Positions 1,973 through 59,488 of a DNA stretch of 64,000 nt are shown in pieces; positions within the stretch are counted from its first letter, which is position 1; each line of letters begins with the position of its first letter. The position numbers and the translations under genes are program-made. The notes under the pieces were generated by a model. The model searched no databases. It worked only from the letters and a program-made list of their open reading frames with translations, and had not been told where the DNA came from. Source of the DNA: an uncultured Gemmatimonadales bacterium (GTDB taxonomy: Bacteria; Gemmatimonadota; Gemmatimonadetes; Gemmatimonadales; GWC2-71-9); assembly GCA_963842945.1 (NCBI GenBank), contig CAWJIM010000019.1:192001-256000 (forward strand), given 5' to 3'.

Positions 1973-3540
1973 ATGGCAGGTTTGCGCGGTTCACGTCATT
2001 TCCGGTTGACACTGGTTCTAGCAGGTCTGGTCGGCTGGGCAACCGCCCTTTCGGCGCAGACCGATGCCCGCTGGCTGGGTTCGCGGATGAACGACTGGTA
2101 CGCCGAGGCGTCTCGCAGCGCTCCAGGCGACTGGGGAATTGCGGTGGCAGACCAAGGCAGGGCAGATGCTCTGGAGCTTCAATGCCGACGCGTCGCTGAT
2201 GCCCGCTTCGGCGGTGAAGCTGTTCACTACCGGGTACGCCAGAAGCGTGTTGGGGGGAAACGCTCGACGCGCAACTCGCCTGATTGGCTCCGGGGTGGTC
2301 GACCCCAAGACCGGCGAATGGCTGGGCGATTGGGCGCTCGAGGTGAATGGAGATCCCTCCCTGGAACGGGCCCAGGGCTCGGGGCCAACGCTGTTTGACC
2401 TGGCCACCCAGCTGGCGGATGCTGGTGTCCGGCGGCTCAGCGGTCCACTGCAGCTTCAGAGCGCCGATGGACCCGCGACCGCGATCTATCCCGCCGTCTG
2501 GTCCCGCCGCCACATGGGACGCCTGTTTGCTCCCCTGGTGGGACCGCTGATGGTGCACGAAAACATCGTCTGGTTCACCGTTCGGCCGGGGCGGCGCGTA
2601 GGTGAGCGGGTCAGACTGATCGAGACGGCTCCTGCGGGCATCAGCTCACTGGTGACGGTGACTGCCACCACCCGGAGCGGGCGCCGCTCCCGCCTGCGTC
2701 TGGTGCCGAGAAGGGGTGGCGGTTGGGTGGTCAGCGGCACTTTGGGCGTGCGGGCCGCGCCGCGCCGGCTCACGACCGTATCGAGCGATCCCAAGGCCGT
2801 CCTGTCCGCGGCCTGGAGCTCGGCGCTGAAGCGCGCGGGCATCACCTGGAACCGGACCAAAAGGCCAAAATCGTCGTTCGACGCGTCGCCCAGAGTGCTG
2901 GCCGAGGTGGCCTCCCCTCCGCTCGACTCGCTGGCCAGTGAGATCAACCGGCGGAGCCTCAACGCCGGGGCGGAGCTGCTGCTCCAGTGGGCTGGAGGAC
3001 GGGAAGATGGGCCTGCCCACCTGGTGGACCACGTCCAGACTATCACCGGGCAGAATCAGGGCGTCTATCTGGTGGATGGCAGTGGACTGTCCTATGAAGA
3101 CCGGGTCACCGCATCCACGTTCGTCTCCTACCTGGCAAAGTTCCCCACCACGCAGGCGGGCCGGAACTTTCCTCAGCTCCTGCCATCCAATGGCACCGGT
3201 ACCCTGCGCCAACTGAATACCGGATTCCCCGGCCTCGGGCGTGGTTCGGGCCAAGACAGGGACGCTGGGTCAGGTGTCGACCGTGGTCGGCTACCTCGGG
3301 CGGCCGGAGGGCACCCTGCTGGTGTCACTGATGTACAACGGCGGGCGTCCCGGCGCGGCTCGGCAGGAGCAGTGGAAGCTGTTCCGCCTGCTCGGCGCCG
3401 ATGGGGTGGTGATTCCGGCGGACACCAGCTCGGGCGAGCCGGTACAGCTGGGTGGGGAGCAGACGGCCCCGCCGGATTGGTGGCCGGGGTCCTCCGCCGA
3501 CTCGAGCGATAGTGGAGCCGACACGCTCGAGACCGAATAG
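1973..3540 (+). CDS. dacB: D-alanyl-D-alanine carboxypeptidase/endopeptidase (PBP4, peptidase S13); frameshifts near 2150 and 3240
   Basis: Signal peptide in ORF 1973; SxxK (PASAVK), SxN (SLN), DGSGLS in ORF 2139; KTG (AKTGTL) in ORF 3241. Confidence 0.9.
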
Positions 3541-3550
3541 CGCTAGATCC

Positions 3551-4138
3551 CGACCTGTCACTTTCAAACTCCGACCCAGCACCTTCAGACTCCGACCGGT
3601 TCAGCCTAGGCGTCGAAGCGATGAGCTTCGGACGCGACCTGTTCGATCCCAAGCGCGATCCTATCATTCCAGACTGCGTCGCTCTCAACGCCGGATGCGA
3701 AGCAAACACTTTCGACGCGATAGCAGCCACTCCAGAGCGCGACCCGTTCATTTCCGTCTGCGACCGGTGCAGCGCTGATCACGACCTGCGCGGTTCCGAC
3801 CCCGATCCGGTCAACTCGTGCGGCGAACCGGTCGCTTTCATGTGCGACCCGTCCAATTCCGGACGCAACACGTTCGATCTCAAGCGCGATCCTGCCAATT
3901 TAGGCTGCGGTTGGTTCATCAGCAGACGCGAAGCAGTCACTTACGACTCGGAACCGGCCACTCCGAAGCGCGACCTGCGCAATCCTGATCGCGACCCGAT
4001 CCTTTGTCATTGCGAGTCGGTCGACTGCCTTCTCGACCGTGACGGCTTCGAGGTCAACCCAGTCATCCTCCCACCCGAGTCTCGCCAGTTCGACCTCTAG
4101 TCGTTCACTTGCAACGTCGAAGCAACTATCTCTGGGAT
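3551..4138. repeat. Degenerate tandem array with 21-nt period, about 28 units
   Basis: CGACC at 3551, 3572, 3593, 3635, 3740, 3761, 3782, 3845, 3971, 3992, 4034, all in one 21-nt register; CGATC/CGAAG/CGAGT variants at most other register positions. Confidence 0.85.
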
Positions 4139-4249
4139 TGTTCCGGACGATCACAATGTCTTCCCTGACGGGATCGCAGTCGCATCGGGTTCCGGGAATT
4201 CCGAGCCTGTCGCTGAGATTCAAGCTTTGCTCAACTCGATCGTTGGTGT

Positions 4250-4278
4250 AAACAAAAGGGCCGCCAAAAGGCGGCCCC
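4250..4278 (-). terminator. Intrinsic terminator downstream of the S8 peptidase
   Basis: GGGCCGCC-AAAA-GGCGGCCC hairpin (4258-4277) followed on the minus strand by TTTTGTTT. Confidence 0.8.
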
Positions 4279-4308
4279 TCGCTCAAGCAATTTGCTTCGA
4301 CTGTCGGC

Positions 4309-5748
4309 CTACAGACCAGCGAGAGCTTCGTCTGCCGTGGCCAGACCCGCACCGGTGGCGTCAGACCCCCAACAGATCTTGTCATCCTTTGCCGTATTGG
4401 GATTGAGCACGTCCCGGCAGCCCGCCTCTAGCGGTATCGCCGTTGTCTTGAGGACGGTTTCGGCCTCGGCCTGGTCCAGGCTGTTCTTCTGCTGGGCCAT
4501 GAGGGCCACAATGCCGGCCACATGCGGGCTGGCCATCGAGGTGCCGCCCAGGAAGAACCAGGAGAGCTGGCCCTGCTGCTCCTGGAACGGACCGACCACC
4601 CAGCTGCCCGGCGCCGCCACATCTAGCTGCTGGTCCTTGAGCTCACGGCTGGAGAAGTCGGTGATGTAGTAGTTAGCCGGGTCGGTCGGATCGGGAACGT
4701 TGCAGGCATTCCACCAGGAGCCGAAGACCACTGGTGTCGCGGCAATGCAGTTCCGCCACTCGCCGACCCAGCCCGATGCCGCCACGCTGATGACCGGCGG
4801 GTAGGCGCCGGGGTAGCCCATGCCGTCCTCACCCTGGTTGCCGGCGGATGCAACAATCATTACGCCTTGGCCGATAGCATAGTCGATCGCAGCCTTCTCC
4901 ATGGCGTCCAGCTCCGGGCCGCCCAGACTCATATTGATAACAACCGGCGAACCGTGGAGCTGGCCTTTCTTCAGGTCGCCGATGTAGGTGATGCCTTCCG
5001 CAATGACCGAGGAAAAGCCGCTGCCGGTCTGACCCAGGACCTTGACCGGGATGACCGTTGCCTTGGGAGCTACGCCATTGAGCGGCACACCCTGCAGGGT
5101 GTAACCGAGAATGGTGCTGGTGACGTGGGTGCCGTGCGAATGGACGTCTTGCTCCCACTTGTTCGGCTGTTCCGACACATTGCCCAGATCGTTGCCGCCG
5201 CCGCCGAACGACTTGGCCAAACCGGTAGCAATCCGGTCGGCCGGGAAGTAGTAGCGCCAGGTCGGGAGCAGGCCGGTGTCGAGGACCGCAACGTAGACGC
5301 CGTTGCCATCCTTCCCGATGACTCGGTCATTGTTTGCGCCGGACACGCGGTCAGTGACGTTCACCGCATCCAAGTCCCAGGTGTTCAATCCGGCGGTCGC
5401 GAAGTCATTGATCGGGAGCGTCACATCGGGCGGAATGTTCCGCTTCACGTCGAAGTTCGCCGCCGCCACATATGGCAGCGCCCGGATCGAGGAAAGCACC
5501 GACTCCTTGCCCACCAGAGTCACCGCGTTGATCTCGACAATCTGCTTCTTGATGGTGCCGAAAGTGCCGAGTTGCGTCAGCTGAGCGGGCGTAGCCGGAC
5601 CCTTGAGCACTACGTTGATGCCCTTGCTAGCCGATGAGGTTGCGGCTTCGGCGCCCGGATTCTGAGGTCCGGTGTTGGGCTCCTGTTGGTCGTTACAGGC
5701 CCCGATCGCGAGGACCGCGGCGACCCCGAGCATGATACGGCGATTCAT
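4309..5748 (-). CDS. Subtilisin-like S8 serine peptidase, lipoprotein
   Basis: Triad motifs VLDTG, HGTHV, GTSMASPHVAG; SAGN; lipobox IGAC after MNRRIML start at 5748. Confidence 0.95.
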   Translation of the reverse strand: MNRRIMLGVAAVLAIGACNDQQEPNTGPQNPGAEAATSSASKGINVVLKGPATPAQLTQLGTFGTIKKQIVEINAVTLVGKESVLSSIRALPYVAAANFDVKRNIPPDVTLPINDFATAGLNTWDLDAVNVTDRVSGANNDRVIGKDGNGVYVAVLDTGLLPTWRYYFPADRIATGLAKSFGGGGNDLGNVSEQPNKWEQDVHSHGTHVTSTILGYTLQGVPLNGVAPKATVIPVKVLGQTGSGFSSVIAEGITYIGDLKKGQLHGSPVVINMSLGGPELDAMEKAAIDYAIGQGVMIVASAGNQGEDGMGYPGAYPPVISVAASGWVGEWRNCIAATPVVFGSWWNACNVPDPTDPANYYITDFSSRELKDQQLDVAAPGSWVVGPFQEQQGQLSWFFLGGTSMASPHVAGIVALMAQQKNSLDQAEAETVLKTTAIPLEAGCRDVLNPNTAKDDKICWGSDATGAGLATADEALAGL

Positions 5749-13878: not shown

Positions 13879-14607
13879 ATGCAGCGCTTGCGTCCTACCC
13901 CGTTCGACCTGGTGTTCGAGACCACCGCCCAGACCACCTTCCCGGCCATCCGAACCGCTCTTGACGAGGCTGGCCACGACGCCCGTAATCGAGACGGCTT
14001 CCTCATGCTGCGGGAGGTGGTGTCGCTGCTGCGGGACCTCCGGCCGGAAGACGGATTGGGCGAGGGCATCGATCAACTGGCTGCGCTCGTGCATCACGGG
14101 TACCTCTTCTGGGCCGGCGGCAGCCTCACCGTGAAGCTGAGCTCGGATCAGCTTTCGGACTTCCTCCGTAGCGCGGCGCCGCGGGCAGCTCCCCAACCCG
14201 ATGGGCGAGCGTTCTACACCCAGCTACCGGAGCGGCGAGTCTGGGCTCAGGTCATTCCCGGAGATCCGCACGAGCCACTGGACGGCTGGTTCCAATACTA
14301 TGAGCCGGACGCCGGACTGCTGCGGGTTCTGGGGGTCTTCGGAATTCATCCCGATCGTCCAGGCTTCAGCGTGGTCGAGGTAGGCGGGCAGCAGCCGATC
14401 GGGTTGACCAGACCGGACGGCACGTCGGTGTTCAGCCCCACCCTTTCCGGGGGCGCGGCCGCGGGACTCTTCTCCCTTGCCGGTGAGGAGGAGCTGCTCG
14501 AGCTCGGCTGGCGGGTCATTGAGCTGGAAGCTGGGAGCGGGGAGCTGGGAGCAAACCGCTCCGAGCAGCCCGATCCGAGCTCCCGACTCCCGGCCCCCAG
14601 CTCCTAG
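13879..14607 (+). CDS. Hypothetical protein
   Basis: Clean ORF packed between operon genes; C-terminus encoded by a repeat element. Confidence 0.7.
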   Translation: MQRLRPTPFDLVFETTAQTTFPAIRTALDEAGHDARNRDGFLMLREVVSLLRDLRPEDGLGEGIDQLAALVHHGYLFWAGGSLTVKLSSDQLSDFLRSAAPRAAPQPDGRAFYTQLPERRVWAQVIPGDPHEPLDGWFQYYEPDAGLLRVLGVFGIHPDRPGFSVVEVGGQQPIGLTRPDGTSVFSPTLSGGAAAGLFSLAGEEELLELGWRVIELEAGSGELGANRSEQPDPSSRLPAPSS

Positions 14608-41676: not shown

Positions 41677-42291
41677 ATGAGTCTCGACGGCAAGATCGTT
41701 CTGTTCTTTGCGGGTCCGCTCTATGAGGACCTGGAGCTGTGGTACCCCAAGATCCGGCTGGAGGAGGAAGGCGCCCGCACGGTCGTGGCCGGCACCGGAG
41801 AGAAGACCTATCAGGGAAAGCGGGGATACCCGCTCACCGTCGATACCAGCGTGGACGAGATCCGCGCCGCCGACTTCGACGGCCTGGTGATACCCGGCGG
41901 CTACGCCCCCGACATCATGCGGCGGTCGCAGAAGCTGCTCCAGCTCACCCGGGAGATCTACCAGGCCGGAAAGCCGGTGGCCTTCATCTGCCACGCCGGA
42001 TGGGTGCCCATCTCGGCCGGAATCGTGAAAGGCAAACGGGGCACCAGCGTCGGCGCCATCAAGGACGACCTGGTCAACGCAGGTCTGCTCTGGGAGGACA
42101 GCCCGGTGGTGGTGGACGGAAACCTGATCTCGTCCCGAACGCCGGCGGATTTGCCGCAGTTCTGCAAGGCGTTGATTGCGGCGTTAGAAAAGCAGTCGGG
42201 AGCTGGGAGTCGGGAGCTGGGAGCCAAAGCAGGCAAAAAGCCTGAGCCCGCCTCGGCGAAGACCACTGTTTCATCAGTTCACCGAAGGTAG
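41677..42291 (+). CDS. DJ-1/PfpI family protein
   Basis: YEDLEL, DGLVIPGG, AFICHAG, VVVDGNLISSRTPADL. Confidence 0.93.
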   Translation: MSLDGKIVLFFAGPLYEDLELWYPKIRLEEEGARTVVAGTGEKTYQGKRGYPLTVDTSVDEIRAADFDGLVIPGGYAPDIMRRSQKLLQLTREIYQAGKPVAFICHAGWVPISAGIVKGKRGTSVGAIKDDLVNAGLLWEDSPVVVDGNLISSRTPADLPQFCKALIAALEKQSGAGSRELGAKAGKKPEPASAKTTVSSVHRR

Positions 42292-42336
42292 ATCGTTGCG
42301 GACTTCTCCTAGCTCCGAGCTACCAGCTCCCAGCTC
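42194..42336. repeat. Palindromic element of 7-nt GGGAGCT-type units across the pfpI/mazG junction
   Basis: AGTCGGGAGCTGGGAGTCGGGAGCTGGGAGC ... CTCCTAGCTCCGAGCTACCAGCTCCCAGCTC. Confidence 0.7.
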
Positions 42337-42679
42337 TCTGCGAGACGCTCAAGCCCGCGTTCACGCCTGGATCCGCCAATACGAAGAAGGCTACTTCGAT
42401 CCGCTCACCAACCTGGCCCGGCTGGCGGAGGAGGTGGGCGAGCTGGCCCGGGAGATCAACCACCGCTTCGGCCAGAAGACCAAGAAGCCGGAGGAGCCCG
42501 AGGGCGACCTCGGCATGGAGATGGCCGACATTCTGTTCGTGCTCATCTGCATGGCCAACCGCGAGGGGATCGATCTGCAGGACGCGTTTGATCGGATGAT
42601 GGGGAAAGTCGAAGCCCGTGACCAGGATCGGTGGACGAAGAAGAGCGTGAGCGGGGACAGCAGAAAGCGTGAGCGGTGA
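42296..42679 (+). CDS. MazG-like nucleotide pyrophosphohydrolase (YpjD type)
   Basis: GYFDPLTNLARLAEEVGELAREINH, EMADILFVLICMAN. Confidence 0.9.
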   Translation: MRTSPSSELPAPSSLRDAQARVHAWIRQYEEGYFDPLTNLARLAEEVGELAREINHRFGQKTKKPEEPEGDLGMEMADILFVLICMANREGIDLQDAFDRMMGKVEARDQDRWTKKSVSGDSRKRER

Positions 42680-42755
42680 GCGGGCCACGTTCATGGTAGT
42701 TCAGCCGCTTCGCTCGCTCCAGTCCGCTGCTCCCGCTTTTGCCGCTTCCCCCGCT

Positions 42756-43688
42756 TCACTCCCATTCCGCCGGCGCGCTCTCCAGCTCCTCCAGCAATAT
42801 CCGGTAGCTCTCCAGCCGGTCGGCCTGGACCCTGCCCTCCTCCACTGCGGCCCGGATCCGGCAGCCCGGCTCGCTGATGTGGCGGCAATCGCCGTAGCGG
42901 CACTCGCCGATGAAGGGCCGCATCTCGGGAAAGCAGCTGGCCAGCTCCCGAGGCTCGATGCCCCAGAGTCCCACCTCGCTGAATCCCGGCGTGTCCACCA
43001 GGAAGCCTCCCGCGTCGAGCGGCAACATCACCGCGGAGACGGTGGTGTTCTTGCCCCGGCGCACCCGGGCGCTGATCTCGCCGATTCGGAGCTTGAGCCC
43101 CGGCTGCACGGCATTGAGCAGGCTGGATTTTCCCGCACCCGATGGCCCGGTCACCACCGAGACGCGTCCCTTCAACGCTTCGGCGAACTGGTCGATGCCC
43201 TGCCTGGTCTTGACGCTGGTAGGATAGACGACGTAGCCGGCGGCGCGGCAGCGCTCGATGAGCTCGGTGCCCGGCTCGAGCTCCACCTTGTTCACCACCA
43301 CGGCGGCAGGAATCGAATTGGCTTCGGCTACCACGAGGAGCCGGTCGATCAGCTGGGGAATGGGGGCGGGATCCACCGTCGCGGTGACCACGAAGACTTC
43401 GTCGATGTTGGCCGCCACCGGGCGGGTGCCGCGGCCCTCGGGCACCCGGCGCTCCAGGAGAGTAGTGCGGGGCTCGACGCCGACTATCCCGAAGACCTCT
43501 CCCTCGGCCTCGGGCTCCAGCCGGACCCGATCGCCCACCACGACCCGGGGAGTCTCTCGCTTTGCCTTGCCCCGGAGGATGGCCCGAATCTCCCGGCCGG
43601 GAGCCGCCACCCGGTATACCGATCCATCCCGTTCCAGGATGGTTCCTACCAGGTGCTCACCGCTCACGCTGCTGCTGTTCCCGCTCAC
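42756..43688 (-). CDS. rsgA: Ribosome small subunit-dependent GTPase A
   Basis: Circularly permuted G motifs NKVE, GPSGAGKSS, GKNTT, DTPG; Zn site CRYGDCRHISEPGC. Confidence 0.95.
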   Translation of the reverse strand: MSGNSSSVSGEHLVGTILERDGSVYRVAAPGREIRAILRGKAKRETPRVVVGDRVRLEPEAEGEVFGIVGVEPRTTLLERRVPEGRGTRPVAANIDEVFVVTATVDPAPIPQLIDRLLVVAEANSIPAAVVVNKVELEPGTELIERCRAAGYVVYPTSVKTRQGIDQFAEALKGRVSVVTGPSGAGKSSLLNAVQPGLKLRIGEISARVRRGKNTTVSAVMLPLDAGGFLVDTPGFSEVGLWGIEPRELASCFPEMRPFIGECRYGDCRHISEPGCRIRAAVEEGRVQADRLESYRILLEELESAPAEWE

Positions 43689-43721
43689 CGCTCACGCTTT
43701 GCGGTGCCCGCTCACGGCTTT

Positions 43722-45058: not shown

Positions 45059-45257
45059 CTCACCACGGAGACACGGAGGGCACGGAGGCTGCACGGACTG
45101 CTGATCAGACATCACGCACAAGACTTTTGGTCAGAAGCACACCAGTCTGGTTCAATTCAGGGGGATACAATGGTGTGCTGTTAACTAAAGAGTTCTGTGC
45201 GCAATGTGTGATAACCGGTCCGTGCTGCCTCCGTGTTTTCCGTGCTTCCGTGGTGAG
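45059..45257. repeat. MITE-like element: 40-bp imperfect inverted repeats of CACGGA units around a 119-nt core
   Basis: 45059-45098 vs reverse complement of 45218-45257: 34/40 identical by manual alignment. Confidence 0.8.
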
Positions 45258-45349
45258 GCTGTCTCCATGTGATACCCGTCACGGGTTTGCCGTCGGATTC
45301 TGATATTGTGAATTGGATTCTCACCTCGGGTTTCTCTTCAGGCGGAACA

Positions 45350-46519
45350 ATGGCAACTCGGCACCGGTCAGGGCAGACACGGCAGCGGCGGTGGAGGCGG
45401 GTGGAGAAGAAGGTGATCAAGCGGATGCGTAAGGTCGCCACTCCCCCGCCTGAGGTCGTGAGCGATCCGGTCGAGTCCGCTCAGGCTGCCGGCCTCCGCT
45501 ATGTGAGCGACACCCAGCCGGGGATCCGCCGGAAGCGGGCCGGCAAAGGATTCGTGTACGTGGGGGCGGACGGCAGGACGATTCGTGACGCCAAGGAGCT
45601 GACCCGGATTCGCTCGCTCGCCATTCCGCCGGCGTACACCGACGTGTGGATCTGCCCCAGCCCCAACGGACACATCCAGGCCACCGGCCGGGACGCGCGC
45701 GGGCGGAAACAGTACCGCTATCACCCCAAGTGGCGCGAGGTCCGGGACGAGACCAAGTTCGGCCGCATGCTGGCCTTCAGCCAGACGCTGCCGAAGATCC
45801 GGGCCCGGCTCGAGCGCGACCTCAGCCTGCCGGGGCTCCCCCGCGAAAAGGTCCTGGCTACTGTGGTCCGGCTGCTCGAGTGCACGTGCATCCGGGTGGG
45901 CAACGATGAGTACGCCAAGTCCAACCGCTCCTTCGGACTCACCACTCTCCAGGACCGCCACGTCGAGATCTCCGGGTCCAATCTCCGGTTCGAGTTCCGC
46001 GGCAAGAGCGGCAAGATGCACAAGGTCGACCTCAATGATCGCCGCCTCGCCCGGATTGTGGAGCGCTGCCAGGATCTGCCGGGCGAAGATCTGTTTCAGT
46101 TCCTGGATGATGACGAGGTGCGGCAGACCATTGGATCGGGCGACGTCAATGAGTACATCCGGGAGATCTCCGGCCAGGAGTTCACCGCCAAGGACTTCAG
46201 GACCTGGGCCGGCACTCTGCTCGCGATCGAAGCGCTGACCAAGATCGGCTCCTTCTCGACGCAGCGAAACGCAAAGTCCAACGTCCTCAAGGCCATCGAC
46301 CAGGTGGCCGAGCAGCTGAACAACACCCGCTCAGTCTGCCGGAAGTACTATGTGCACCCCGCCGTGTTGGAGTCCTACATGGATGGCAACCTGCTGGAGC
46401 ATCTGGGCAACGGCAGCAAGCAGAGCGCCAAGAACGAACTGGCGGCCAACGAGGCGGCAGCGGTCCGCCTGCTCCAACGGCATATCGGGAACGCCGCTAA
46501 CGGAAATGGGAAGAAGTGA
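45350..46519 (+). CDS. Bacterial DNA topoisomerase IB (poxvirus-like)
   Basis: IPPAYTDVWI, GRDARGRKQYRYH, IRVGN, FRGKSG, KDFRTW, NTRSVCRKYY. Confidence 0.95.
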   Translation: MATRHRSGQTRQRRWRRVEKKVIKRMRKVATPPPEVVSDPVESAQAAGLRYVSDTQPGIRRKRAGKGFVYVGADGRTIRDAKELTRIRSLAIPPAYTDVWICPSPNGHIQATGRDARGRKQYRYHPKWREVRDETKFGRMLAFSQTLPKIRARLERDLSLPGLPREKVLATVVRLLECTCIRVGNDEYAKSNRSFGLTTLQDRHVEISGSNLRFEFRGKSGKMHKVDLNDRRLARIVERCQDLPGEDLFQFLDDDEVRQTIGSGDVNEYIREISGQEFTAKDFRTWAGTLLAIEALTKIGSFSTQRNAKSNVLKAIDQVAEQLNNTRSVCRKYYVHPAVLESYMDGNLLEHLGNGSKQSAKNELAANEAAAVRLLQRHIGNAANGNGKK

Positions 46520-47069
46520 GGAACGTGAGGAACGACGGAACGACGGAACGACGGAAGACTTTCCTTACGGTTCCGTCACGTTCCTCACGTTCATCGCTTG
46601 TTCCCCTTCAGGCGACAAGACCGCTGTGAAGGCCGACTGGAGCCGGGTTCCGGTCGCGGTCGAGTTGCGATTGGCCCAGGGTGCTTCCGGCCCTGACATG
46701 GTCCGCCAAGAGGTGTTCGGTCAGGGTCAGACGGTATATCTCAGTCCTCGAGCTCAGATCTCCAACGCGGACATTGCCCGAGTAGAGGCGGTGAAGACCA
46801 GGATCGGAAAGGGGCTGATCCTGCAGGTTTGGTATACCAAGTCCGGAGCCAAGCGGATTGCGGAGTTGACCAGGCAGCATATCGGCGACAGTCTCGCCGT
46901 ACTGATTAATTCAGTCGTCGTGGCAATCCCCGTCATTCAAGAGCCTATCAACCCCGGCACGCAGACCTCGAGCGACATCGGAGTTCCCCTGGAACCCAAA
47001 GAGGCCAACCAGCTGGCCGCTGCGGTGTCGAAGACCTGGCCGGCGGGCGGTAAGGCGGTAAAGCGGTAA
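46506..47069 (+). CDS. Putative lipoprotein with SecDF P1-head-like domain (start uncertain)
   Basis: FIAC lipobox; GAKRIAELTRQHIGDSLAVLINSVVVAIPVIQEPI. Confidence 0.6.
   Translation: MGRSEEREERRNDGTTEDFPYGSVTFLTFIACSPSGDKTAVKADWSRVPVAVELRLAQGASGPDMVRQEVFGQGQTVYLSPRAQISNADIARVEAVKTRIGKGLILQVWYTKSGAKRIAELTRQHIGDSLAVLINSVVVAIPVIQEPINPGTQTSSDIGVPLEPKEANQLAAAVSKTWPAGGKAVKR
46516..46592. repeat. 8-9-nt GGAACG-core tandem repeat palindrome
   Basis: GTGAGGAACGTGAGGAACGACGGAACGACGGAACGACGGAA ... TTCCGTCACGTTCCTCACGTTC; related units at 47076-47118, 56291-56331, 59417-59488. Confidence 0.75.
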
Positions 47070-47295
47070 GGCGGTCGTTCCCCACGTTCCAGTCGTTCCC
47101 CACGTTCCTCACGTTCCGCCCTGTGTGACCCTCGCGCTCCTCCGGCGTCTCCCTCCTGAGATCCTGACTGGCGCGGCCCCTCCTCGATCCTTCCCCAAGT
47201 CGTTCGTTCCCCGCCAGCGGGATCTCACACCGCGGGACATGTCGTTCATGCCCGAAACGTTCGTGGAACCAGTGCCGTTGTTTAAGGTAGGTCCT

Positions 47296-56283: not shown

Positions 56284-56325
56284 CTCTCATCTCACGTTCC
56301 GTCGTTCCCCACGTTCCGGCGTTCC

Positions 56326-58575
56326 TCACGTCAGCCGCATGCGCTCGAGCAGCCGGTGGAAACGGGCATCGTCCCGAATGCCGTCGAGCATCGGCTCGAT
56401 CTTCAGATACGCCAGCCAGCCACGCCGGTCCTGATACGCCTTGTCCAGCCACTCGAACGCCAGGTCTCGCTGGTCGAGCGTAACATACAACTGGGCCTGC
56501 GCCACCGGTGACACGTAGCGTAGTTTGGCCCTCGCCTCCAGCTCACCCAGGACGGCCCGCGCCTCGTCCACTCGCCCCCGGCGGGCGGCCACGTGCCCCA
56601 GGCCCCCCAGCGCCAGCGCATCGTTCGGCGAATTGGCGAGTGCCTCCTTGAAGGCAGCCGCCGCTTCGTCCAGCGACCCCTGTTGCAGGTAGACCAGCCC
56701 AAGCAGGCGGTGGGTTTCCTCTGCCGTCGGATCCATGGCAAGGCCGCGCCTCAGATTGTCCAGGGCCGCATCGTGCTGCCGGGCGTAATACTGCAGCCAG
56801 CCCATGCTCCGCCGGATCGAGACCGAGGCGGGGTCGAGCTCGATGGCCATTCGCCCGTGCTCCAGCGACTCCTCGAATCGCCCCATCGCGGCGAGAAACC
56901 AGGAGTACCACTGGTGAGCGGTCGAGTAGCGAGGGTTGAGCTCCACCGCACGGCGGAACTGCCGCTCGGCACCGGCCCAATCCCAGTCATAGATAAAGGT
57001 CACCCAACCCAACGAGGTGTGAGCCTCGGCCAGGGTTTCGTCCAGCGCGATTGCCTTGCGAGCCTCCGCTTTGGCCCGCTCCATCCCCTCGAACACGGGC
57101 GCGCCCTTGTAGTCGAGGTCCAGGGCGTAGGAATCGGCCAGCCCGCTGTAGGCCAGGGCGTAACCGGGATCTTCGGCGATGGCCTGCTCGAAATACCGAA
57201 TGCCCTCCCTGATTCCCTCCTGGGTGCGGCGGTTCCAGCAGAAGCGTCCTTTCAGGTACAGGCTATAGGCCTTCACATTGGCGGTGTAGCGGACCGGCGT
57301 CGGATCCCCCAGGTCGCCCAGCAGCGTTGCTCTAAGGGTCCGCACGATAGTACCCGCGATCTCATCCTGAATCGCAAAGACGTCGGACATTTCGCGGTCG
57401 TAGCGCTCCGACCAGAGCAGGCGCCCGTCACTCACCCGGCTGAGCTGGATTGTGATGCGGATCCGGTTGCCCGATGTCCGCACCGTGCCGTCGAGCACGG
57501 TGGTGACGTTGAGCCGGCTGCCCAGGGTCCGCACGTCTTCCCGCAGGCTCTTGAGCGCGAACACCGACGTGCGGGAGGCGACCTGCAAACCCTCGACCTT
57601 GCTCAGCGCGGTGATCAGCTCGTCGGTCATGCCGTCGCTGAAATACTCGTTCTCCGGATCGGCGCTCGAGTTGACGAAGGGCAGCACGGCGATGCTACGC
57701 TGGTCGAGGGGACCCGTCATCGGTATGGCGGTCGGCGCCGGAGCAACCAGCGCGTCGCAAAACTCCGCCATCGTGGCAAACCGTTCCGACGGGGACTTGG
57801 CGAGCGCCCGCTGCAGCGCAAGCTCGACCGCCAGCGGAACGGTCGGCCGAAGCGAGCGGATGGGGACCGGAGGCTCGATGGCATGACGGGCCATTGTCGC
57901 CCGAGCGCCCGAGCCGGCAAAGGGAGGCTGGCCCGCCAACATCTCGTACAGCACACAGGCCAGGCTGTAGAGATCGCTTCGGCCATCCAGGTCGCGCTCG
58001 GCGCTGGCCTGTTCCGGGCTCATGTATGTAGGCGTGCCCACCGCAAAGCCGCGATCGGTGATGTAGATGTTGTCTCCGCCTGCGGCCGACATGGCCGTGG
58101 CCACCCCGAAGTCGGCCACCACCGGCTCCCCTTCCTGGAGCAGGATATTCTCCGGCTTGATGTCGCGATGGATGACGTGATGCCGGTGGGCATACCCGAG
58201 CGCCGTGCCCACGGCCCGGGTGATCCGGAGTGCCGCATCGATCGGCAGCTGGCCCTCGCGGTGCAACCGGTCCCGCAGACTCTCGCAGCCGGCATAGGGC
58301 ATCACGAAATACAGCAGCCCGTCGCATTCCCCGGAGTCATGGACCGGAAGGATCTGGGGATGAGAAAGCCGGGCTGCAATCCGGATCTCGCGAAGGAAGC
58401 GCTGGGGCTCGTACGAATGGCCGGGGGCGGGCAGCATGACCTTGATGGCGACCTTGCGACCGTGCTTCAGGTCCTCAGCCAGGTACACCGAAGCCATTCC
58501 TCCGTGACCGATCTCTTCTTCGATTCGGTAGCGATCGGCCACGGCGGCTCGCAGCTGTTCTGGCACGGCGGGCAT
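56326..58575 (-). CDS. Ser/Thr kinase with TolB-like domain and TPRs
   Basis: GHGGMA, HRDIKPEN, DFG, SPEQ; SIAVLPFVN...YFSDGMTDELI; TPR repeats. Confidence 0.95.
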   Translation of the reverse strand: MPAVPEQLRAAVADRYRIEEEIGHGGMASVYLAEDLKHGRKVAIKVMLPAPGHSYEPQRFLREIRIAARLSHPQILPVHDSGECDGLLYFVMPYAGCESLRDRLHREGQLPIDAALRITRAVGTALGYAHRHHVIHRDIKPENILLQEGEPVVADFGVATAMSAAGGDNIYITDRGFAVGTPTYMSPEQASAERDLDGRSDLYSLACVLYEMLAGQPPFAGSGARATMARHAIEPPVPIRSLRPTVPLAVELALQRALAKSPSERFATMAEFCDALVAPAPTAIPMTGPLDQRSIAVLPFVNSSADPENEYFSDGMTDELITALSKVEGLQVASRTSVFALKSLREDVRTLGSRLNVTTVLDGTVRTSGNRIRITIQLSRVSDGRLLWSERYDREMSDVFAIQDEIAGTIVRTLRATLLGDLGDPTPVRYTANVKAYSLYLKGRFCWNRRTQEGIREGIRYFEQAIAEDPGYALAYSGLADSYALDLDYKGAPVFEGMERAKAEARKAIALDETLAEAHTSLGWVTFIYDWDWAGAERQFRRAVELNPRYSTAHQWYSWFLAAMGRFEESLEHGRMAIELDPASVSIRRSMGWLQYYARQHDAALDNLRRGLAMDPTAEETHRLLGLVYLQQGSLDEAAAAFKEALANSPNDALALGGLGHVAARRGRVDEARAVLGELEARAKLRYVSPVAQAQLYVTLDQRDLAFEWLDKAYQDRRGWLAYLKIEPMLDGIRDDARFHRLLERMRLT

Positions 58576-59416: not shown

Positions 59417-59488
59417 CGTGAGGAACGTGGGGTACCGGAGGAACGTGGGGACGTTCCGTCGTTCCTCACGTTCCGTCGTTCCTCACGT
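59417..59488. repeat. GGAACG-core tandem repeat palindrome
   Basis: CGTGAGGAACGTGGGG...GGAACGTGGGG / CGTTCCGTCGTTCCTCACGTTCCGTCGTTCCTCACG. Confidence 0.75.

Follow-up and report, generated by a model that had tools for sequence, protein, structure and literature searches.

A degenerate 21-bp array beside a dacB-like gene belongs to a Gemmatimonadales minisatellite family that is normally linked to a sigma-54-type promoter and a multicopy gene

Between two convergent peptidase genes of an uncultured Gemmatimonadales bacterium lies a stretch of about 590 bp that keeps a strict 21-nt period while the letters within the period vary, which raises the question of whether it is a gene, the remains of a gene or a periodic element without a protein product. 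In the window that we analysed (the whole stretch of DNA, 64,000 nucleotides) the left neighbour, recognised from ORFs and Pfam, is a dacB-like S13 peptidase gene (1973..3540, plus strand) that is split over three frames in the assembly, and the right neighbour, recognised in the same way, is an S8 (subtilase) peptidase gene (4309..5748, minus strand). A GC hairpin followed by a T-run (4254..4279, minus strand), which was read directly from the sequence and is absent from the output of the terminator/promoter-type scan, is the likely S8 terminator and marks the right boundary. No terminator hairpin follows the dacB stop at this locus, where 13/19 relatives have a strong one (judged from folds). 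The break in the dacB frame near 3231-3233 is likely an assembly error, because relatives' contigs are one base shorter there.

The sequence-only reading of this stretch had described about 28 units of 21 nt in a single register, beginning 10 nt past the dacB stop and with CGACC exact in 11 of them, and all of this was reproduced: the core array consists of 28 degenerate units (3550..4137, delimited by register and family-model score, with the core GCGACC on the plus strand), the first CGACC lies 10 nt after the stop at 3540, and CGACC recurs in register 11 times (3551-4034). The 21-nt peak, for which a comparison with shuffled DNA had been proposed, is clear, with a lag-21 match of 0.470 against 0.264 +/- 0.019 (1000 base shuffles, maximum 0.326; codon shuffles at most 0.353) and a self-match of 0.453 and 0.432 at lags 42 and 63, respectively. 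The units are about 47% alike, with their variation distributed across all 21 columns. Tandem Repeats Finder missed the array, even at a score of 30, and in a genome-wide scan for period 21 the single higher scorer was a coding heptad repeat. The 22-mer noted at 3641 and 3872 is indeed spaced by 231 nt (11 x 21), and the pair sits within an internal duplication of 137 nt with 71% identity, found by self-comparison (first copy 3629..3765, second copy 3860..3996, both on the plus strand, offset by 11 units or 231 bp; also detected as 117 nt at 75%). Beyond 4137 the register persists weakly, to about 4242 (4138..4242, where 2/5 units exceed the 95th percentile of random 21-mers). No second copy was found in the same genome with a profile of the units, blastn of the array against 103 genus genomes gave, outside its own genome, short chance-level matches alone (best E 0.004), and a sigma-70 scan of the array region returned nothing.

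Short-read contigs from 8/8 runs (four soil studies) cover most of the array and are near-identical to it, with 0-3 differing letters per piece of 150-280 nt. Contigs cross the junctions of the array with dacB and with the terminator, no single piece spanning the whole stretch, and the array is therefore not an assembly artefact. Neither a change in unit number nor a new joint was seen at the locus in the 8 runs, of which the contigs are short and of low depth. In one contig (run X4), 4 nt are missing right where the array begins (window 3550).

A sequence-only model built from seven window stretches recovered other period-21 arrays in the genus, one of which lies upstream of a 236-aa hypothetical gene, hereafter the partner gene. 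This gene was found in 75/103 genus genomes (up to 14 matches each), in 48/113 family genomes and in 0/137 other genomes of the phylum that were searched; an unpublished genome (G047) is among the 103 genus genomes that were tallied, and no claim depends on it alone. We examined 88 partner-gene loci, of which 79 contain the gene start and 61 are distinct. A period-21 excess (threshold 0.06, passed by 1.3% of random genome windows) was found upstream of the partner gene in 42/58 loci and downstream in 2/53, the denominators being the loci with enough flank. The array in the window is a member of this family of 21-bp minisatellites, which occurs in one Gemmatimonadales family.

The gene-linked arrays normally consist of 20-35 degenerate 21-bp units, occupy 450-750 bp upstream of a sigma-54-type promoter, and give a period-21 signal that extends from about 50 to 700 bp upstream of the promoter motif. 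The motif, TGGCA-N8-GC, which we take to be the sigma-54 -24/-12 consensus, is found 100-140 nt before the partner-gene start in 47/61 loci. The resulting module has a usual layout, in which a palindrome at one end of the array is followed by the -24/-12-type motif, which precedes the start codon by about 117-136 nt, and by the gene. In the genome that carries the window, a single sigma-54 gene and 14 activator-domain matches were identified, and of its other sigma-54-type sites 1/35 has a period-21 score above 0.06. Its own two partner-gene copies have weak arrays (0.038 and 0.026); one of these two near-full copies (G000:C19:415472-416148) is frameshifted. In three loci (L092, L093 and L096) the far end of the array, at about 700-800 nt from the partner gene on its upstream side, carries another sigma-54-type motif, which points outwards and precedes a divergent gene, so that the array lies between two divergent promoters.

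The palindrome measures 20 bp (GTGTCC-N8-GGACAC) and was found upstream of the partner gene in 38/51 loci (leave-one-out) and downstream in 0/46. It is often paired, with a second copy 21 bp off, at the array end, which is the far end in most genus members and otherwise the end nearer the promoter. In roughly a quarter to a third of the modules it lies beside the promoter with the array outside. The array units are not decayed copies of the palindrome (p 0.54 for the array in the window; 0/16 arrays significant). Sigma-54 promoters consist of two elements, and PMC3162934 regards such sites as likely genuine when no more than about 300 nt separate them from a start. Promoters of this kind with enhancers, as presented in PMC4987338 and PMC3162934, resemble the intact module in the -24/-12-type motif, the upstream palindrome and the presence of sigma-54 and activators in the host. 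Since sigma-54 enhancers usually lie 80-150 bp upstream in that description (PMC4987338), we read the palindrome of the intact module as a putative activator (enhancer) site, although it lies 120-760 bp from the promoter and beside 20-35 units. The idea that the array serves as a spacer is weakened, because the palindrome-promoter distance shows no helical phasing at 10.5 bp (Rayleigh p 0.84, 29 intact modules) and because in part of the modules the palindrome is beside the promoter.

The partner protein (~230 aa, multicopy, uncharacterised) is predicted by AlphaFold to form a long all-helical bundle (mean pLDDT 87.8, pTM 0.73). There was no Foldseek hit at E 0.001, and the best structural match (Z 9.8, rmsd 3.6, 175 aligned) is of a generic kind that is common for helical bundles. 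The query matched no Pfam family, no PDB sequence below E 0.87 and nothing in viral contigs or in plasmid and phage collections. The first 90 residues carry a net charge of -1 to +13. A weak match to the NCBIfam PQLLE family (NF052641) was obtained for 50/75 members of the partner family (best E 5e-7), but the query itself scored 15 bits against a cut-off of 80 and the host genome contains no match; no function of the PQLLE family was found in the literature searched.

That the array in the window belongs to the family follows from a cyclic 21-state model that was trained on 58 gene-linked arrays with this array excluded. It scored 68.9 on the minus strand and 32.5 on the plus strand, where 40 shuffles gave -24 +/- 3.5 and none of 60 genome windows exceeded 3.2, and it beat 40/40 column-permuted models (16 +/- 12, maximum 51). 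An unrelated coding heptad repeat of the same genome failed this permutation test (p 0.34). The other parts of the module were not detected here: there is no sigma-54-type motif near the array, no promoter-leader in or near it (profile search), no DNA-profile hit for the partner gene (weak hits elsewhere in the window are at chance level), and no palindrome beside it (best score 1.0, threshold 11). In this the copy in the window differs from a sigma-54 enhancer region, having neither promoter nor palindrome. A candidate remnant of a -24 box on the minus strand, at 3545, was discarded with a rank of 97 among 2044. A candidate promoter-leader remnant at 4132-4260 (plus strand) was likewise rejected, with a score of 32 against at least 51 in true leaders and no profile hit (full-shuffle p 0.19, tail-shuffle p 0.01). 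The evidence on orientation points both ways: to the minus strand according to the cyclic model and the most similar individual arrays, and to the plus strand according to a 4-mer classifier and the position that best resembles a junction (4132).

Comparison of orthologous modules shows how such arrays change. Among 11 pairs (two with frameshifted genes, and without a usable codon rate), arrays differ by 0.10-0.36 per site and four-fold sites by 0.13-0.38, and the promoter-leaders differ by 0.02-0.03 in the three closest pairs. The array letters thus drift near-neutrally, about as fast as silent sites, and hypermutation of the arrays is not supported. Relative to the model, the 58 gene-linked arrays contain 120 one-base deletions and 16 insertions, part of which may be error as some genomes are long-read assemblies; their register shifts average about 2.3 per 480 nt against 0 over the 28 units of the array in the window. 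Unit number changes by whole units in relatives, for instance in orthologous gene-less arrays that differ by gaps summing to 21, and in the present copy by the 231-bp duplication alone. In several arrays the centre is homogeneous and the edges are degenerate. Slippage or unequal recombination would copy whole units, and with such copying the 21-bp period would renew itself while the sequence of each array drifts, without selection on the letters. In the intact module the array could then be control-region DNA that is kept for its presence and length and not for its letters. The copy in the window would have no control role left, being at most read through from dacB, and is probably inert.

Another finding was that the array is not alone in lacking a gene. 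A classification of 32 loci gave seven strong arrays, namely six without a gene (including the array in the window and L178) and one gene-linked, the remaining loci having weak or no periodicity and being left uncounted. L178 (1251-1642) is a near-perfect 21-bp minisatellite with another consensus; it was excluded from the family (column-permutation p 0.15), and its flanks carry what are presumably Uma2-like and DUF1640-like genes and an IS256-like transposase. The gene-less arrays of the family are the present one and five in other genomes (L180, L182, L183, L184 and L188), with L183 and L188 being orthologues; L180, L183 and L184 also beat 40/40 column-permuted models, and L182 is marginal (p 0.049). 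No leader or partner-gene hit was found in the 8-64 kb around each of the six (8-17 kb for the five in other genomes), and they lie just past gene ends. Their lag-21 match is 0.47-0.66, compared with a median of 0.39 and a 90th percentile of 0.47 for gene-linked arrays, in searches that favour homogeneous arrays. The census is biased, since these searches were seeded with gene-less arrays. L184 (1118-2108) is a young gene-less array in the family sense, upstream of an unrelated lipoprotein gene and followed by a short 8-nt repeat. In L183 (990-1020) and L188 (980-1010), at the terminator end, the best match to an array-promoter junction ends right after TGG, possibly a truncated promoter.

We consider it most probable, at roughly 60%, that the array in the window is a relic of an array-promoter-gene module from which promoter, palindrome and gene were deleted. 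Modules do break up, as is evident from a 3' fragment of the partner gene in the host genome (G000:C4:119615-119751) that has neither array nor promoter and lies directly before a small coiled-coil gene, which we take to be DUF1640-like. The deletion itself is presumed: in relatives, the dacB locus contained an array in 0/19 cases, and none with an intact module between dacB and S8 was found. The greater homogeneity of the gene-less arrays is odd for relics, and the absence of register shifts from the array in the window also speaks against this reading, as do the conflicting signs of its orientation and the weakness of the arrays at the two partner-gene copies of its own genome. Gene-less copies offer a natural test between relic and mobile origin.

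That homogeneity, though obtained with searches that favour it, makes mobility the main rival: the gene-less arrays would be non-autonomous elements that are seeded or amplified at new sites by the helical protein, either by itself or together with an enzyme of the host, and the copy in the window would have arrived geneless. The positions just past gene ends, the six arrays without leader or gene nearby and the many modules per genome with varied neighbours are all consistent with such an origin, which we nevertheless regard as unlikely. The residues that are invariant in a diverse alignment of the partner (G, A, L and W) do not look like a catalytic set, and the protein is predicted to fold as a plain long bundle with generic matches. 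The consensus differs from array to array, the present array occurs once in its genome, neither terminal repeats nor a target duplication were found, and the census carries the bias of its seeds. More speculatively, and with about as little confidence, the helical protein and the 21-bp arrays might form a new selfish or regulatory DNA system, in which the protein would coat DNA or act on it by a ruler of two helical turns, renewing and seeding arrays of free letters and fixed period under a sigma-54 switch, with the gene-less arrays as non-autonomous progeny or decoys.

The array is likely non-coding. The non-coding periodic element that the sequence-only reading had offered as one possibility fits, with no frame showing a synonymous excess and neither translation having homologs; its other proposal, a decaying or hypervariable coiled-coil gene, did not hold in view of the same lack of synonymous excess, the 1-nt shifts in related arrays and the absence of homologs. 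For its suggestion that the units might be phased protein sites, two related tests came out negative, since the units do not derive from the palindrome and the distance from palindrome to promoter shows no helical phasing. The open heptad frame that it had noted on the plus strand is real (3621..4100, 159 aa), and homology, codon and chance tests make it likely a by-product of the repeat and not a gene. If it were a real or emerging heptad-repeat protein, made by read-through from dacB and with the register as a coding constraint, one would understand why the frame is open over 26 units, why L180, L183 and L188 are likewise open in the corresponding frame, why these three arrays and the present one have no 1-nt register shift, and why in L078 (the same locus as L180) the start of the open frame overlaps the upstream stop codon. 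However, an open frame is within what chance would give (P 0.28 with column shuffles and 0.085 in a neutral simulation), codon differences in this frame of the duplicated block are 1 synonymous against 20 non-synonymous, differences between nearest units are synonymous in 9/50 cases where 13.7 are expected, the codon score is 0.08 per codon compared with 0.17-0.31 in neighbouring genes, and L182 and L184 contain units that break the frame. The search among 5.8 billion proteins returned no homolog other than the ORF itself, that among 1.8 billion representative proteins returned two unrelated repeat proteins and no homolog, and metagenome contigs contained no relative. Neither array frame has a Pfam match, and in the ESM Atlas both gave low-score unnamed clusters alone. 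A synonymous excess was seen in no frame of this array or of six related arrays, at the low power of 31-50 differences. Because three further gene-less arrays keep the corresponding frame open, we leave the plus-strand protein a slim chance.

A decaying remnant of a minus-strand coiled-coil gene with D-R-V heptads is largely refuted and very improbable: its in-register frame does form an amphipathic heptad and has its first codon positions least changed in the duplicated block (4 vs 13 and 14), but it is broken, as had been noted, by stops (TGA, TAG and TAA) that are no fewer than in column shuffles, its nearest-unit differences are synonymous in 13/50 cases against 13.0 expected, a homology search in 103 genomes gave nothing better than E 0.003, and related arrays share the period without the peptide and carry many one-base indels.

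Bacterial minisatellites or VNTRs consist of head-to-tail units that are gained and lost as a whole, with homogeneous centres, degenerate edges and near-neutral drift. The 21-bp arrays resemble them in their tandem units and whole-unit changes in number, and differ in that the period of 21 is common to dozens of arrays of unlike consensus that are tied to one gene family and one promoter type, and in that the copy in the window is too degenerate for Tandem Repeats Finder. Iterons of plasmids and phages are near-identical direct repeats beside the replication initiator on the replicon. Like them, the arrays have direct repeats with a spacing of about two helical turns next to a gene, but the present array is chromosomal, its units are only about half alike and its neighbours are peptidases, and the partner is absent from the plasmid and phage collections. 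That the array is not CRISPR-like, as had been stated before, is borne out by the spread of variation over all columns and the absence of an Rfam match. It is not the variable repeat of a diversity-generating retroelement either, as change is not adenine-specific (all four bases at 0.37-0.42) and the genome has no second copy.

RAYT proteins are thought to spread REPINs, and the system as described in PMC3337134 resembles the present one in having intergenic repeats with a dedicated gene and gene-less copies near gene ends. The array differs from that description in lacking a hairpin doublet, in having direct repeats and in being a single copy without multicopy identical repeats, and the partner gene differs in being multicopy and probably not a tyrosine transposase. 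Compared with HUH tyrosine transposases, the partner has no Pfam family, no conserved tyrosine and a helical-bundle model, with the reservation that fold lists cannot exclude that family.

What this analysis adds is the gene-less class of arrays, which explains how such stretches come to carry the annotation of hypothetical proteins with heptad repeats. A promoter design in which a 21-bp period is fixed, the letters are free, and the array goes with one type of promoter and a multicopy orphan gene was not found in print, and no publication on the array-promoter-helical gene module was found in a search that had most subscription papers and bioRxiv supplements outside its coverage. The module gives an unannotated protein family of an abundant soil lineage a testable context, consisting of a promoter, a palindrome that is a candidate enhancer, and an array of variable length. 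Elsewhere in the window, the minus strand at 980-1477 carries a low-complexity, lipoprotein-like ORF with many DTTG motifs and no convincing Pfam match, and clusters of 7-, 8- and 9-nt tandem repeats are found at 14521-14604, 42194-42757, 43655-43719, 45064-47117, 56293-56331 and 59451-59488.
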